Of a stretch of DNA of 6,210 nt, positions 70 through 6,210 are shown one piece after another. A model generated the notes under the pieces. It was not told the DNA's origin. It was given only the letters and a program-made list of their open reading frames with translations, and searched no databases. This DNA is from a virus (lineage: Duplodnaviria > Heunggongvirae > Uroviricota > Caudoviricetes), in IMG/VR virus record IMGVR_UViG_2740892432_000002, positions 1 to 6,210 of that record, one strand, 5' to 3'. The position numbers were made by a program, and so were the translations under genes. Every line of letters starts with the position of its first letter. Position 1 is the first letter of the stretch.

Positions 70-93
70 ACCCGCTTCGGCGGGTTTTTTGTT
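70..93 (+). terminator. Rho-independent terminator (ACCCGC / TTCG loop / GCGGGT followed by TTTTTTGTTGT)
   Basis: GC stem with a UUCG-type tetraloop immediately followed by a T6 run. It lies upstream of the first ORF, consistent with the end of an upstream transcription unit (tR-like terminator in a nin-type region). Confidence 0.65.
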
Positions 94-2013: not shown

Positions 2014-2096
2014 TTTTTTACGCATAAACTGCTTCAATTCCGGTATGCTTCGCAAAGCTGTATCGCGAGGCGAACCAAGCGCATGAACTTTACCAG
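2014..2096 (+). promoter_or_regulatory. Putative late promoter (PR'-like) and Q-utilisation region; exact -35/-10 not resolved
   Basis: Interval between the Q stop and the tR'-like hairpin, where lambdoid phages place PR' and qut. Only weak candidates were found (TTGATT at 2010-2015 with TTCAAT at 2033-2038). Call is by position, not a strong motif. Confidence 0.3.
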
Positions 2097-2125
2097 AACC
2101 CGCCATTGAGCGGGTTTTGTTGTTT
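2097..2125 (+). terminator. tR'-like rho-independent terminator (AACCCGC / CATTGA loop / GCGGGTT followed by TTGTTGTTT)
   Basis: 7-bp GC-rich stem followed by a T-rich tract about 85 nt downstream of the Q stop, the expected position of the terminator that Q-modified RNA polymerase reads through. Confidence 0.65.
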
Positions 2126-2234: not shown

Positions 2235-2804
2235 ATGAGAGAACTACCTAAAGATTATTTTTTAGGAGTAGATGATGAGCTCGTCGATTATCTTGAAAAA
2301 CAAGGGGAAGAGACGATACGAGAGATTCATCTTTCTAACAAAACCAATGTTGAGAATGGATACAAACTTCTGAACATTCAGATTGTTGGAATTGGTTCAT
2401 CTTTTTTATTGCTGACACAGAAAACTAATTTCGATTTTCTCACCGCCGGAATTACCACATTTACATTACTATGGACATGGTGCGCCATTTACTTGGTATG
2501 TACTGGTTTATCTGTGAAGGTTAGGGGCCTGATCAATGCCCCTCCTGATCATCTATATCATGAAAAATATAAGGATATGGAGCCCTCGAGCTTTAAAATA
2601 TTCGCTGATGCAGGATATTTAGGACCTGATAAGTTATTGCCGCTTATACGAAGGTATCGCCTTGTTGACTTGAGTGATACAGCAAGAGAGTTACTGTTGG
2701 AAAATGAGAAAATCCGCACGAGTCTCGATAAAGCAAGGATGTATACCATCCTTGCTCCGGTAGCGGCGATGTTTATCTCGGCTGTTTTTTTATATGTTCA
2801 ATGA
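2235..2804 (+). CDS. Hypothetical membrane protein, 189 aa, three predicted TM helices; moron between Q/tR' and holin
   Basis: ATG with a strong SD 4 nt upstream. Hydrophobic segments at roughly residues 46-63, 70-92 and 171-189 (C-terminal YTILAPVAAMFISAVFLYV). Acidic N-terminal segment of about 45 aa. Visibly more AT-rich than the flanking phage genes. I recognise no family. Confidence 0.65.
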   Translation: MRELPKDYFLGVDDELVDYLEKQGEETIREIHLSNKTNVENGYKLLNIQIVGIGSSFLLLTQKTNFDFLTAGITTFTLLWTWCAIYLVCTGLSVKVRGLINAPPDHLYHEKYKDMEPSSFKIFADAGYLGPDKLLPLIRRYRLVDLSDTARELLLENEKIRTSLDKARMYTILAPVAAMFISAVFLYVQ

Positions 2805-2934
2805 CTGAGTCGGCAGAATCTCCAACAAAAACACGACGTGTAGCAAAGTCTGTAGTACTTTGTGTTGGAGTTGGTTTTGGTGCCACGGGTTGCTGAGGTT
2901 TATTTTCACCTTGTGGTTTGTTTTTTTCAGACAT
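2773..2934 (-). CDS. Small hypothetical protein, 53 aa (MSEKNKPQGENKPQQPVAPKPTPTQSTTDFATRRVFVGDSADSVIEHIKKQPR), convergent with the moron gene
   Basis: ATG at 2934-2932 (- strand) with SD AGAGGA about 7 nt upstream. A plausible sigma70 -10 (TATATA/TATACT) lies upstream on the - strand near 2990-2998. The six-frame ORF (2773-3165) extends further 5' but the first SD-preceded ATG gives 53 aa. Pro/Gln-rich low-complexity N-terminus; overlaps the 3' end of the 189-aa gene by about 30 nt. Could be spurious. Confidence 0.3.
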   Translation of the reverse strand: MSEKNKPQGENKPQQPVAPKPTPTQSTTDFATRRVFVGDSADSVIEHIKKQPR

Positions 2935-3028
2935 AAAAATCCTCTTTGTTTGAATTGTTACTTTTGGCGATTTAACGATATCAAACACGAGTATATACCG
3001 CCAGAAGCTTAATCTGGCACTCCATCTG

Positions 3029-3056
3029 GCCCCGGCATGTCCCGGGGCTTTTTCGT
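3029..3056 (+). terminator. Rho-independent terminator (GCCCCGG / CATGTC loop / CCGGGGC followed by TTTTTCGTTGTT)
   Basis: Perfect 7-bp GC stem followed by a T5 run on the + strand, about 95 nt upstream of the holin start. It is oriented to stop + strand transcription from the moron promoter before the lysis genes. The - strand flank is not T-rich, so it is unidirectional. Confidence 0.65.
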
Positions 3057-3151
3057 TGTTAGGCTCCGGAAAGATCCTCGACTTCTTGTTAGCAAGCCTG
3101 AGAGCCTGAATCTTACACTTAGCACCATCCGAACTCTCGGAGGTGAGGCTT

Positions 3152-3493
3152 ATGAAAATGCACAATGCCCCTCATTCCTGGCCTGACTTACTGGAACTCT
3201 TACAAAGTTGGTGGCGTGGAGATACGCCGCTGGGTGCAGTGGTTATGTCAATTATTATGGCTGGTTTGCGCATTGCCTATTTTGGCGGTGGCGGCGGCTG
3301 GAAACGAAAAACGCTTGAGATTCTGCTTTGTGGTGCTCTGACGCTGACCTTTGCATCCGCGCTTGAGTATGTCGGATGGCCTAAATCACTTTCTGTTGCC
3401 ATTGGTGGTGGGGTGGGGCTGATTGGTGTTGATGCTATTCGTGGTGCGGCAATGAGGGTCATCGGTAACAAGTTCGGTGCCCATAAGGAGTAA
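3152..3493 (+). CDS. Holin (three predicted TM helices, MKM dual-start motif); not lambda S-like in sequence
   Basis: Sits immediately upstream of the endolysin (stop TAA 3491-3493, R ATG 3497). SD GGAGG at 3139-3143 is 8 nt before ATG 3152, and a second Met follows at codon 3 (M-K-M), as in the lambda S107/S105 holin/antiholin arrangement. An in-frame GTG at 3143 would give MRLMKM. Three hydrophobic helices and a charged C-terminus (RGAAMRVIGNKFGAHKE). Confidence 0.8.
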   Translation: MKMHNAPHSWPDLLELLQSWWRGDTPLGAVVMSIIMAGLRIAYFGGGGGWKRKTLEILLCGALTLTFASALEYVGWPKSLSVAIGGGVGLIGVDAIRGAAMRVIGNKFGAHKE

Positions 3494-3496
3494 TTA

Positions 3497-3973
3497 ATGC
3501 AGACACTTAATTCCCAGCGTAAAGCTTTCCTTGATATGGTGGCATGGTCAGAAGGAACAGATAACGGACGGCAGAAAACCAGAAATCACGGTTATGATGT
3601 TATTGTCGGTGGCGAACTGTTCACTGATTACTCCGATCACCCCCGCAAACTTGTCACGCTAAATCCGAAACTCAAATCAACAGCCGCTGGACGTTACCAG
3701 CTTCTTTCACGCTGGTGGGATGCCTACCGCAAGCAACTTGGCCTGAAAGATTTTTCTCCAGAAAGTCAGGATGCTGTAGCGCTGCAGCAGATTAAAGAGC
3801 GTGGCGCTTTGCCGATGATTGATCGCGGTGATATCCGTCAGGCTATCGACCGTTGCAGCAATATATGGGCTTCACTGCCGGGCGCTGGTTATGGTCAGTT
3901 CGAGCATAAGGCTGACAGTCTGATTGCAAAATTCAAAGAAGCTGGCGGAACGGTCAGAGAGATTGAGGTATGA
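3497..3973 (+). CDS. R: Endolysin, lambda R-type lytic transglycosylase (158 aa)
   Basis: Translation is near-identical over most of its length to lambda R as I recall it ([55 protein letters not shown]...REI.V); only the first ~6 residues differ. Perfect SD AAGGAG 6 nt upstream. Stop overlaps the Rz start (ATGA at 3970-3973). Confidence 0.95.
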
Positions 3974-4434
3974 GCAGAGTAACCGCGATTATCTCCGCTC
4001 TGGTTATCTGCATCGTCGTCTGCCTGTCATGGGGTGTTAATCATTACCGTGATAACGCCATCGCCTACAAAGAACAGCGCGACAAAAATGCCAGAGAACT
4101 GAAGCTGGCGAACGCGGCAATTACTGACATGCAGATGCGTCAGCGTGATGTTGCTGCGCTCGATGCAAAATACACGAAGGAGTTAGCTGATGCGAAAGCT
4201 GAAAATGATGTTCTGCGTGATGATGTTGCCGCTGGTCGTCGTCGGTTGCACATCAAAGCAGTCTGTCAGTCAGTGCGTGAAGCCACCACCGCCTCCGGCG
4301 TGGATAATGCAGCCTCCCCCCGACTGGCAGACACCGCTGAACGGGATTATTTCACCCTCCGGGAACGACTGGTAATGATGCAGGCCCAACTTGAAGGTGC
4401 TCAGCAATACATAACCGAGCAGTGTTTAAAGTAA
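3970..4434 (+). CDS. Rz: Rz i-spanin (inner-membrane spanin subunit), 154 aa
   Basis: N-terminal TM helix ([16 protein letters not shown]) followed by a charged, coiled-coil-like periplasmic domain. Near-identical to lambda Rz from memory. Position after R and the embedded Rz1 confirm the call. Confidence 0.95.
4190..4375 (+). CDS. Rz1: Rz1 o-spanin lipoprotein (61 aa), fully embedded in the +1 frame of Rz
   Basis: Signal peptide with lipobox (LVVVGC), then a Pro-rich mature region ([18 protein letters not shown]). Matches lambda Rz1 and the Rac RzoR as I recall them. Classic embedded-gene architecture. Confidence 0.9.
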
Positions 4435-4514
4435 AATCTTAACTACAATATGATTCATTTTGATGATTGTTTCATAAGGAACAGTGAAGTAAGATCTAAG
4501 AGGAGTTAAATTTT

Positions 4515-4554
4515 ATACAGTATAATCATAATATTGCAGCAAGGTGGTTATAAT
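4515..4554 (+). promoter_or_regulatory. AT-rich putative promoter region for trkG (two consensus TATAAT hexamers at 4521-4526 and 4549-4554)
   Basis: Two perfect -10 hexamers in the very AT-rich intergenic region between Rz and trkG. No convincing -35 was found. Call is by motif only. Confidence 0.3.
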
Positions 4555-4571
4555 TGAAAGAATATTTAGAT

Positions 4572-6029
4572 ATGAATACATCTCATGTAAGAGTTGTTAC
4601 TCATATGTGTGGGTTCCTGGTTTGGCTCTATAGTCTTTCAATGTTGCCACCAATGGTTGTAGCATTGTTTTATAAAGAAAAAAGCCTGTTCGTTTTCTTA
4701 ATAACTTTCGTTATATTTTTTTGCATTGGTGGCGGAGCGTGGTATACAACTAAGAAATCTGGCATTCAATTACGTACCCGTGATGGGTTTATTATAATTG
4801 TAATGTTTTGGATTTTGTTTTCTGTTATTAGTGCATTCCCTTTATGGATTGACTCAGAACTTAATTTAACGTTCATTGATGCTCTGTTTGAAGGGGTTTC
4901 TGGAATAACAACAACAGGAGCAACTGTAATTGATGATGTTAGTTCATTACCTCGGGCATATTTGTACTATCGGTCACAGTTAAATTTTATAGGTGGTTTA
5001 GGAGTTATTGTTCTGGCGGTTGCTGTATTGCCATTATTGGGTATTGGTGGTGCAAAGCTTTATCAGTCAGAAATGCCGGGGCCATTTAAGGATGACAAAC
5101 TCACTCCCCGCCTGGCCGATACGTCACGGACACTGTGGATAACTTATTCTTTATTAGGTATTGCTTGTATTGTCTGTTATAGACTTGCAGGAATGCCTTT
5201 GTTTGATGCTATTTGTCACGGGATTTCCACAGTTTCGCTTGGTGGTTTCTCAACTCATAGCGAGAGTATCGGATATTTTAATAACTATTTGGTTGAGCTG
5301 GTGGCTGGTTCTTTTTCCCTGCTATCGGCTTTCAACTTCACTCTTTGGTATATTGTTATTAGCAGGAAAACGATAAAACCTTTAATCAGAGATATTGAAC
5401 TTCGTTTCTTTCTGTTAATAGCCTTAGGGGTGATCATTGTTACCTCTTTCCAGGTCTGGCATATAGGTATGTATGACTTGCATGGAAGTTTTATTCATTC
5501 GTTTTTTCTTGCCAGCTCCATGCTCACTGATAATGGTTTAGCTACGCAGGATTATGCAAGTTGGCCCACGCACACGATAGTGTTTTTGCTGTTGTCAAGT
5601 TTCTTTGGGGGATGTATAGGTTCAACTTGTGGTGGAATTAAGTCACTTCGATTTCTTATACTTTTCAAACAAAGCAAACACGAGATAAATCAGCTTTCTC
5701 ATCCCAGAGCGTTGTTGAGTGTAAATGTAGGAGGGAAGATAGTTACAGATCGTGTAATGAGGTCTGTATGGAGTTTCTTTTTTCTTTATACTCTCTTCAC
5801 GGTGTTTTTTATACTGGTGTTAAATGGTATGGGATATGATTTTCTTACATCATTTGCAACAGTGGCTGCATGTATTAATAATATGGGATTAGGTTTTGGG
5901 GCTACTGCATCGTCATTCGGAGTGCTTAATGACATTGCAAAATGTTTAATGTGCATAGCTATGATTCTTGGTCGCCTTGAAATTTATCCTGTTATTATAT
6001 TGTTTTCAGGTTTTTTTTGGCGCTCCTAA
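4572..6029 (+). CDS. trkG: TrkG/TrkH-family potassium uptake membrane protein (485 aa from ATG 4572)
   Basis: Long polytopic membrane protein with repeated Gly-rich selectivity-filter-like motifs (GITTTGATV, GGFSTH, GLATQDY, NNMGLGFG). N-terminus MNTSHVRVVTHM matches Rac-prophage TrkG as I recall it. Markedly AT-rich compared with the adjacent lysis genes. An in-frame TTG at 4554 has a better-placed SD (AAGGTGG at 4541-4547), so the true start may be 6 codons upstream. Confidence 0.93.
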   Translation: MNTSHVRVVTHMCGFLVWLYSLSMLPPMVVALFYKEKSLFVFLITFVIFFCIGGGAWYTTKKSGIQLRTRDGFIIIVMFWILFSVISAFPLWIDSELNLTFIDALFEGVSGITTTGATVIDDVSSLPRAYLYYRSQLNFIGGLGVIVLAVAVLPLLGIGGAKLYQSEMPGPFKDDKLTPRLADTSRTLWITYSLLGIACIVCYRLAGMPLFDAICHGISTVSLGGFSTHSESIGYFNNYLVELVAGSFSLLSAFNFTLWYIVISRKTIKPLIRDIELRFFLLIALGVIIVTSFQVWHIGMYDLHGSFIHSFFLASSMLTDNGLATQDYASWPTHTIVFLLLSSFFGGCIGSTCGGIKSLRFLILFKQSKHEINQLSHPRALLSVNVGGKIVTDRVMRSVWSFFFLYTLFTVFFILVLNGMGYDFLTSFATVAACINNMGLGFGATASSFGVLNDIAKCLMCIAMILGRLEIYPVIILFSGFFWRS

Positions 6030-6063
6030 TATATGGCTGATTTATAATTGTGAGTTTAATATT

Positions 6064-6204
6064 ATGTTGACTCACTCATTGATCCAATACCTAACTTTAC
6101 CAGCAACACCTCCGTCCCCAGTAGCACTGGCTGCTGGGGTGCGTTTTATTCATAAAGCAAGGCTGTATGAGCGAGAAATTAAAGATGATCTTACCCAGCA
6201 ATAG
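6064..6204 (+). CDS. Small hypothetical ORF (46 aa) downstream of trkG; uncertain
   Basis: ATG 6064 in frame with track ORF 5968-6204; the upstream part overlaps trkG and is rejected. Only a weak SD. Alternatively, an ATG at 6185 (MILPSNSG...) in another frame may start a gene that runs off the window end (possibly the Rac ynaK homologue; not verifiable here). Confidence 0.2.
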   Translation: MLTHSLIQYLTLPATPPSPVALAAGVRFIHKARLYEREIKDDLTQQ

Positions 6205-6210
6205 TGGACA

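Follow-up and report, generated by a model that had tools for sequence, protein, structure and literature searches.

The segment at positions 4435–6029 of the 6210-bp window, by which we mean the whole stretch of DNA analysed, is trkG, carried as cargo (a 'moron') by the lambdoid Rac prophage, and the gene most likely begins at a TTG codon. We consider it likely that this codon, TTG 4554, is the main start site and that the native protein has 491 residues. The question of a TTG start is not new, having been reported in 2016, and 491-residue entries already stand in the databases; similarly, the foreign origin, low GC content, H-NS repression and Na+-dependent K+ uptake of trkG are already published. 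What is added here is the conservation of the TTG start and its Shine-Dalgarno (SD) sequence across genera, which, as a comparison of orthologous DNA, argues for correcting the length of the protein from 485 to 491 residues.

Gene organisation of the late region

Open reading frames together with Pfam and NCBIfam profile searches identify the window as the late region of a lambdoid prophage. In its 5' part, genes for a DUF1367 protein and a nuclease-like protein of the YbcO/DUF1364 type precede one for a Q-like DUF1133 antiterminator, which is followed, before the holin, by an AT-rich open reading frame that matches no family. Its 3' part comprises the holin, a 158-residue endolysin, Rz with an embedded Rz1, trkG and the 5' end of ynaK, with the following features:

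3152..3493, + strand: lambda-family holin (Pfam Phage_holin_3_1, E=2e-27; PGAP 'phage holin, lambda family' in strain RM9513)
3497..3973, + strand: endolysin, 158 aa (glycoside hydrolase family 24 annotation in matching genomes)
3970..4434, + strand: Rz i-spanin (Pfam Phage_lysis, E=4e-53)
4190–4375, + strand: Rz1 o-spanin, inside Rz (Pfam Rz1, E=2e-19)
4392..6033, + strand: block shared with the Escherichia albertii copy, 84% nucleotide identity (blastn of the window against that copy)
4435..4553, + strand: AT-rich putative regulatory spacer, 26.9% GC (composition; E. albertii comparison)
4554..6029, + strand: trkG coding sequence from TTG, 491 aa plus stop, TrkH-family membrane subunit for (Na+-dependent) K+ uptake (PF02386)
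6116..6139, + strand: terminator-like hairpin in the trkG–ynaK gap (consensus scan)
6167..6210, + strand: 5' end of ynaK, ParB/Srx N-terminal domain protein (annotation in matching genomes)

The holin has an M-K-M N-terminus, with ATG codons at 3152 and 3158 and an in-frame GTG at 3143. The endolysin (3497..3973) had no Pfam or NCBIfam match at E≤1e-3, and Rfam and tRNA scans of the whole window gave no matches. The 10-bp stem of the hairpin at 6116–6139, at most a candidate terminator of trkG, has seven GC pairs, and its T tract is weak; the hairpin is placed beyond the E. albertii-shared block, in which homology ends at 6033. Terminase genes follow ynaK in intact relatives.

At the nucleotide level the segment 4435–6029 has 100% matches annotated as trkG, and 1550 of the 5426 complete E. 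coli genomes carry it. In one such match the gene order is ttcA-intR-xisR-ralR-recT...Rz-trkG-ynaK-ydaY-tfaR-pinR, and it is this synteny of marker genes at the ttcA attachment site that places the segment in the Rac prophage. Strain RM9513, a more intact relative that is 99.7% identical over the window, carries hokD, the Q-like gene, holin, lysozyme, Rz, trkG, the ParB/Srx gene and terminase genes. No complete genome is 100% identical over the full length of the window, the best match being 99.7%.

The TrkG protein

The first-pass annotation had placed a full-length TrkG/TrkH-type gene directly after Rz/Rz1, and both parts of that description are borne out. Rz ends at 4434, behind the holin and endolysin genes, and the open reading frame of 1476 bp, with its stop codon ending at 6029, encodes a product that matches PF02386 with E=1e-144 and 483 bits (cutoff 27) over profile positions 3–500 of 502. 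The same product scores 415 bits against TIGR00933 (cutoff 331), as a full-length member of the TrkH/TrkG family should, and its residues 13–491 match residues 4–485 of the Vibrio parahaemolyticus TrkH structures 3PJZ and 4J9U with E=7e-121, relating it to a known structure across all four pore repeats. Because its score of 450 bits against the TrkH equivalog NF008020 falls below the cutoff of 866, the protein is the TrkG paralogue and not TrkH itself.

The functionally studied residues of TrkG, Asp121, Glu231, Tyr301, Thr325, Asp327, Ser330 and Trp331, are all present. For the near-identical protein of E. coli K-12, TrkA-dependent K+ uptake has been shown experimentally (PMC9898762), and the same work shows that K+ uptake depends on Na+, that the protein is permeable to Na+ and that Asp327 has a role (Tanudjaja et al. 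2023, PMC9898762). TrkG of this prophage would thus be expected to act with the host TrkA in Na+-dependent K+ uptake, which is the published part of the mechanism.

Composition and origin of trkG

The GC content of the lysis cassette is 50.8%, compared with 37.8% for trkG (GC3 32.1%) and 26.9% for the spacer between Rz and trkG. The best change point lies at ∼4406 (chi-square p=9e-12), so that the sharp difference in composition between trkG and the lysis genes claimed in the first-pass annotation, and the deviation it offered as a check, are both clearly present. Flanked by Rz on one side and by the ParB-like and terminase genes on the other, and with a GC content unlike that of the lysis cassette, trkG has the position of a moron. 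The further claim that this is horizontally acquired prophage cargo, like trkG of Rac, agrees with the synteny at ttcA and with the published low GC content and H-NS repression; the Rac-borne trkG has been described as foreign, with 38% GC compared with 53% (Tanudjaja et al., PMC9898762).

Where did such a gene come from? Orthologues of the trkG clade in other genera are found among ordinary chromosomal genes, and their GC content tracks that of the host, at 42–57%. The closest chromosomal relative, that of E. fergusonii, has 42% GC between flanks of 44%, and a GC content of 38% is seen only in the prophage-borne Escherichia copies. Since the orthologues are chromosomal with host-like GC and the prophage copies stand at 38%, the pattern fits an enterobacterial chromosomal gene captured by a lambdoid phage.

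The copy in E. albertii offers a view of the age of this arrangement. The block shared between the two species takes in the final 43 nt of Rz, runs on through the AT-rich spacer and trkG, and stops 4 nt beyond the stop codon. Upstream of trkG in E. albertii the open reading frames are unrelated to the endolysin and Rz, and only the last 43 nt of Rz are left. The fact that the shared block includes the end of Rz implies that both copies descend from a trkG that was already located behind Rz. The two genes are 84% identical in nucleotide and 92% in amino acid sequence, with a dS of 0.92, and are by these figures old alleles. Their dN/dS is 0.05, and on this pairwise comparison trkG is under strong purifying selection. 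A prophage can thus carry, and keep, a housekeeping-type ion transporter that has its own conserved control region and is under strong purifying selection.

The start codon of trkG

The region around the start contains two elements in addition to the TTG codon:

4541..4547, + strand: Shine-Dalgarno sequence AAGGTGG, 6 nt before TTG 4554 (predicted duplex with the 16S 3' end, -7.7 kcal/mol)
4572..4574, + strand: ATG, the RefSeq/PGAP start giving 485 aa (PGAP CDS start; without SD)

The TTG codon (4554–4556) is in frame with the annotated ATG, and the codon just before it is an in-frame TAA, so that no longer open frame exists upstream. The predicted SD:anti-SD duplex has an energy of -7.7 kcal/mol upstream of the TTG and only -0.9 kcal/mol upstream of the ATG, which agrees with the first-pass annotation in that ATG 4572 has no SD sequence whereas AAGGTGG stands at an ideal spacing, 6 nt, from TTG 4554. 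This functional spacing, the strength of the duplex and the stop codon just before the TTG are what would be expected of a genuine UUG start. Public collections hold both forms of the protein, the 485-residue form annotated by RefSeq/PGAP from the ATG (367 contigs with this allele) and a 491-residue form (78 contigs, for example BEB86118.1).

The ribosome profiling proposed as a check in the first-pass annotation has in effect been published already, and finds initiating ribosomes mostly at the TTG 18 nt upstream of the ATG (PMC4909307). In the tetracycline-inhibited ribosome profiling (TetRP) of Nakahigashi et al. (2016), trkG appears in row 92 of Table S2 (+ strand, 1421788, shift -18, TTG, class '1. 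new site'), with values at the TTG of 75.3, 59.0 and 35.7; the annotated ATG gave 0, 11.8 and 0, and the ratio was 78 on average (PMC4909307). The one direct functional test of the start comes from lacZ fusions of trkG in the same study, in which the highest activity came from the construct with both start codons mutated (PMC4909307). No TrkG N-terminal peptide was found in the N-terminomics and translation initiation site data sets searched, in which trkG is not listed.

Comparison with orthologues points in the same direction as the ribosome profiling. The set examined comprised 11 DNA sequences from the closest clade, those of the window, of E. albertii and of nine fetched orthologues, covering eight named genera. 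The codon aligned to 4554 is TTG in ten of these and GTG in the eleventh, so that a TTG or GTG codon is conserved at this position throughout, and all 11 have an SD-like motif (GGTGG, GGAGG, GGGGTG, GGGAG, GGAG, GAGG or GGGA) beginning 10–13 nt upstream. Codon 7, on the other hand, is ATG in the three Escherichia species alone, E. coli, E. albertii and E. fergusonii; outside Escherichia it is CTG, ATT, CTC, TTA, TTG, GCA or CAT, and the residue aligned to E. coli Met7 in these relatives is Ile, Leu, His, Val or Ala. In a protein search the closest relatives outside Escherichia (65–77% identity) are, with one exception, 491 residues long and cover the whole of the TTG-extended query, predicted proteins of this length being found in Pectobacterium, Pantoea, Enterobacter, Rahnella and Cronobacter among others. 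The exception is a Citrobacter entry annotated with 485 residues from a CTG. In Citrobacter sp. Awk 4 codon 7 is CTG, at which the database protein begins, and TTG-AAA-ACC-TAT-TAT-TCC stands in frame just upstream of it, behind GGGGTG, so that the TTG is the only canonical start there. On the opposing side, the five residues that follow the TTG evolve fast (KEYLD, EERLD, IGHSS, KTYYS and others), so that they provide no separate coding signal.

Could the ATG nevertheless be the true and essentially only start, giving 485 residues, with the ribosome density at the TTG representing non-productive 30S/70S binding to a strong SD sequence or an artefact of tetracycline? It is the start that RefSeq/PGAP annotates, the TTG found no confirmation in the lacZ fusion, and AT-rich, unstructured leaders can support initiation that is independent of an SD sequence. 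Moreover, in a more distant clade of Buttiauxella, Serratia, Xenorhabdus and Morganella (61–69% identity) the proteins have 486 residues and a start that aligns with the E. coli ATG; it is ATG in Buttiauxella and GTG in Morganella, in the latter with GGTGG 7 nt upstream. These starts imply that a shorter N-terminus is also natural in the wider family. We nevertheless regard initiation at the ATG alone as very unlikely, since the predicted duplex upstream of this codon (-0.9 kcal/mol) amounts to no SD, the TetRP values are 0/11.8/0 at the ATG and about 75/59/36 at the TTG, and the eight closest-clade orthologues that have no ATG at codon 7 still keep TTG or GTG, with an SD sequence, at codon 1. 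Both N-terminal lengths are thus seen, in these alignments, to occur in the wider family, and the lineage of Rac trkG appears to use the longer one.

A further alternative is that in Escherichia both codons are used, TTG 4554 and ATG 4572 giving 491- and 485-residue proteoforms in comparable amounts. An ATG signal was seen in one of the three TetRP samples (11.8, compared with 59 at the TTG), Met at codon 7 has been kept in three Escherichia species across a dS of 0.92, and many genes with two start sites were found in the 2016 study of Nakahigashi et al. (PMC4909307). That study, however, classed trkG as a 'new site' and not as dual; the ATG signal was absent from two of the three samples, the average TTG/ATG ratio was 78, and the ATG has no SD sequence, all of which make comparable use of the two codons improbable.

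It is the conservation of the start among orthologues, together with the TetRP data, that makes TTG 4554 the probable main start, and the suggestion of the first-pass annotation that the native protein is six residues longer finds its support in these same two sources. Translation would initiate at TTG 4554, served by the AAGGTGG six bases upstream, to give 491 residues, and ATG 4572 would encode an internal, Escherichia-specific Met7 and serve at most as a minor second start.

Three other potential sources of evidence were considered and set aside. A translational-switch hairpin, in which the SD sequence pairs with 4579–4583 and encloses both starts, has a stability like that of shuffled sequences (z -0.3 to -0.6), and conservation of this SD-sequestering hairpin stops at E. 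coli and E. albertii. An allele on the 94.5-kb plasmids of strain Z142, in which ATG 4572 is changed to ATA while the TTG and SD are kept, was rejected as a natural test; with 17 amino acid changes at ∼2% nucleotide divergence and a 3' frameshift it is annotated by PGAP as a pseudogene, and because it is decaying it cannot serve as start evidence. Finally, the 140 nt that precede the ATG were compared among E. coli loci: 78 are identical, five prophage loci each differ by a single base, and a Shigella flexneri pseudogene has three changes; this region is virtually invariant and hence uninformative.

The upstream spacer and the promoter

The first-pass annotation had drawn attention to a promoter-like AT-rich region containing two perfect TATAAT hexamers. 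Both hexamers exist as described:

4521..4526, + strand: first TATAAT, most likely the -10 element (sequence; conserved in E. albertii)
4549..4554, + strand: second TATAAT, made up of the SD-to-start spacer, the in-frame TAA and the first T of the TTG

The second, however, is better regarded as part of the ribosome-binding site than as a promoter element. When the AT-rich spacer is shuffled by mononucleotides, 3% of the shuffles carry two TATAAT hexamers on the + strand, and across the whole window the hexamer is not enriched (seven observed compared with 4.6 expected). A consensus promoter scan called neither of the two and found no acceptable -35 partner for either.

Evidence that trkG has its own promoter comes from published work. 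H-NS and StpA repress the gene without silencing it, and promoter activity is measurable with a lux reporter (PMC9898762). Genomic SELEX with RpoD holoenzyme gave a 'constitutive promoter' peak at trkG; few such peaks turned up in the prophages covered by that study (PMC5811629). Together, the SELEX and lux data indicate that trkG has its own promoter. Within the spacer, positions 4471–4553 are 87% identical to E. albertii, while the gene differs between the two species at 53% of its synonymous sites; such identity, at a dS of 0.92 that puts these sites close to saturation, suggests constraint on the region that holds the first TATAAT and the SD sequence. The first TATAAT (4521–4526) is most likely the -10 element, from which transcription would start near 4533 to give a leader of ∼20 nt containing the SD sequence; supplements of published transcription start site studies yielded no start for trkG. 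Any transcripts starting downstream of 4554 could not use the TTG.

For the second TATAAT the best reading is that of an A/T-rich spacer between SD and start codon, and not that of a -10 element, since it overlaps the TTG and since the arrangement GG(A/T)GG-(T)TATAA-TTG is kept in the chromosomal E. fergusonii orthologue. The (T)TATAA-TTG part is found in E. albertii as well as in chromosomal E. fergusonii, where the full form is GGAGG-TATAA-TTG, and the chromosomal gene of E. fergusonii shows homology to the Rac copy no further upstream than 4549, the site of (T)TATAA-TTG itself. Were the second TATAAT instead a working -10, transcription would start near 4561 and the message would lack the SD sequence and the TTG, so that translation would begin at ATG 4572 behind a leader of 11 nt. 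Only longer transcripts, such as those initiated at the first TATAAT or read through from the late operon, would then yield the TTG form. In favour of this are the conservation of the perfect hexamer in both E. albertii and E. fergusonii and the in vitro binding of RpoD holoenzyme to the promoter region of trkG (PMC5811629). The second hexamer has neither a -35 element nor an extended -10 (TGn), however; a role as SD-to-start spacer explains its conservation equally well, with the E. fergusonii homology beginning exactly at 4549; and the TetRP data, by placing most initiating ribosomes at the TTG, indicate that most translated mRNA includes that codon. A -10 function for this hexamer we therefore judge to be highly improbable.

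In the lysogen, trkG would be transcribed from its own AT-rich region by sigma-70 RNA polymerase under partial H-NS repression, as published. On induction it may also be read through from the late operon, since a consensus scan of the spacer between Rz and trkG found no terminator-like site.

Why should the closest clade have kept so weak a codon behind so good an SD sequence? A speculative answer, which we think unlikely, is that a UUG start with a good SD has been selected across the clade to throttle a K+ transporter that leaks Na+, and that Escherichia alone gained a Met7 permitting a second, SD-independent initiation; two proteoforms would then result, perhaps from different transcripts, one from the gene's own promoter and the other from late-operon read-through. 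The observation that gives rise to this idea is that the start is kept as TTG in ten of the 11 sequences, over eight named genera, despite 25–35% protein divergence.

The practical consequence of the TTG start is a correction of the annotation from 485 to 491 residues, the reference TrkG probably lacking six N-terminal residues. The residue numbering used in mutational work, for example for Asp327, would shift by six. A start curated in a model organism has spread through thousands of genomes, and annotation pipelines call the orthologous TTG correctly in other genera.

Comparison with known systems

The protein encoded in the window is essentially identical to TrkG of E. coli K-12 (b1363), with two substitutions relative to the cluster representative. 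Reportedly, it is this K-12 protein, b1363 of the Rac prophage, that was studied by Schlosser et al. in 1991 and 1995. The nucleotide identity to K-12 strains is 99.8%, with the same Rac context, low GC content and upstream region. The K-12 Rac prophage has, however, largely lost the holin/endolysin/Rz/Rz1 cassette and the Q-like gene upstream of it, which are intact here.

TrkH, encoded by a core gene of E. coli, belongs to the same Pfam family, is ∼41% identical to TrkG and, in the structures 3PJZ and 4J9U, provides a fold-level sequence match over residues 13–491. TrkH and TrkG share the partner TrkA (PMC9898762). Unlike TrkH, TrkG is Na+-dependent, Na+-permeable and H-NS-repressed, with 38% GC compared with 53% (PMC9898762).

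Chromosomal genes of the TrkG clade in Enterobacterales resemble the window gene in their 491-residue length, in the position of the TTG or GTG and in the SD sequence. Their products are 79% (E. fergusonii), 77% (Citrobacter), 75% (Pectobacterium) and 65–73% (Pantoea, Enterobacter, Rahnella and Cronobacter) identical to it. They differ in not being located in prophages and in having a GC content of 42–57%, compared with 38% in the prophage copy.

Finally, trkG resembles the morons of lambdoid phages, such as lambda bor, in being an extra gene of deviating composition inserted after Rz/Rz1 and before the packaging genes. It would also resemble them in being expressed in the lysogen from its own promoter, which the published SELEX and lux data indicate. 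The nature of the cargo is different, however, for trkG encodes a large ion transporter with 12 helices, whereas morons of the lambda bor type encode a small lipoprotein or virulence factor.

Start codons of the Citrobacter and Buttiauxella orthologues

The public protein for the trkG orthologue of Citrobacter sp. Awk 4 has 485 residues (MNTSQ...), its start having been set at a CTG codon (positions 3943-3963 of L105, the Citrobacter locus). An in-frame TTG with a Shine-Dalgarno (SD) sequence lies 18 nt upstream of the annotated CTG, so the E. coli annotation looks to have served as the model for a wrongly placed start. In Buttiauxella, a member of the more distant 486-residue clade (loci L005 and L006, at about 3950-4000), a TGA-TTG precedes the ATG by 5 codons in B. 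izardii and by 13 in B. massiliensis, in both cases without an SD; B. massiliensis has a 24-nt in-frame insertion, which carries a 7-bp inverted repeat. Over a short stretch the Buttiauxella sequence TAC-CTA-AAT-ATG resembles the TAT-TTA-GAT-ATG of E. coli.

Plasmid and E. albertii loci

Complete E. coli genomes carry trkG at 1557 places, 15 of which are on plasmids. On the 94.5-kb plasmid of E. coli Z142-4 (NZ_CP159692.1), a fragment comprising the 3' end of Rz, trkG and ynaK (58-2252 of locus L102) adjoins an IS3 remnant and fimbrial genes, and is present on three related plasmids. In this trkG the codon corresponding to ATG 4572 is ATA; the copy also has 17 changed amino acids and is frameshifted in its 3' part. 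The trkG of E. albertii NBRC 107761 (L004, 3819-7600) lies within a prophage remnant that adjoins copD/yebY-like chromosomal genes. Only 43 nt of Rz are left upstream of it, while the downstream side has an ORF for an NleF-like effector and one for a metallophosphatase.

Other features of the window

The best whole-window match, strain RM9513 (99.7%), stops aligning at 6186, and the last 24 bases (6187-6210, within ynaK) are unlike the RM9513 genome. Upstream of the lysis genes the following features are found.

70-85, plus strand: strong terminator-like hairpin after hokD
2094-2119, plus strand: strong terminator-like hairpin just downstream of the Q-like gene
2235-2804, plus strand: AT-rich ORF of 189 residues (38.9% GC), after the Q-like gene and before the holin gene
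2773-2934, minus strand: small convergent ORF overlapping the 3' end of the 189-residue ORF
3028-3049, plus strand: strong terminator-like hairpin before the holin gene

The 189-residue ORF, which has hydrophobic stretches and no match in Pfam or NCBIfam, may be a second cargo gene. The convergent ORF has a strong SD (AAGAGGA). In RM9513 both ORFs carry the PGAP label "hypothetical protein". The hairpin at 2094-2119 occupies the position expected of a tR'-type terminator.

Among the lysis genes, the endolysin (3497-3973, 158 residues) is assigned to glycoside hydrolase family 24 by the annotation of matching genomes, and has no match at E<=1e-3 in Pfam or NCBIfam. The holin begins M-K-M (ATG 3152, AAA, ATG 3158; window 3143-3160), with an in-frame GTG lacking an SD three codons upstream of ATG 3152, at 3143. 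This M-K-M is the same dual-start motif as that of lambda S107/S105.
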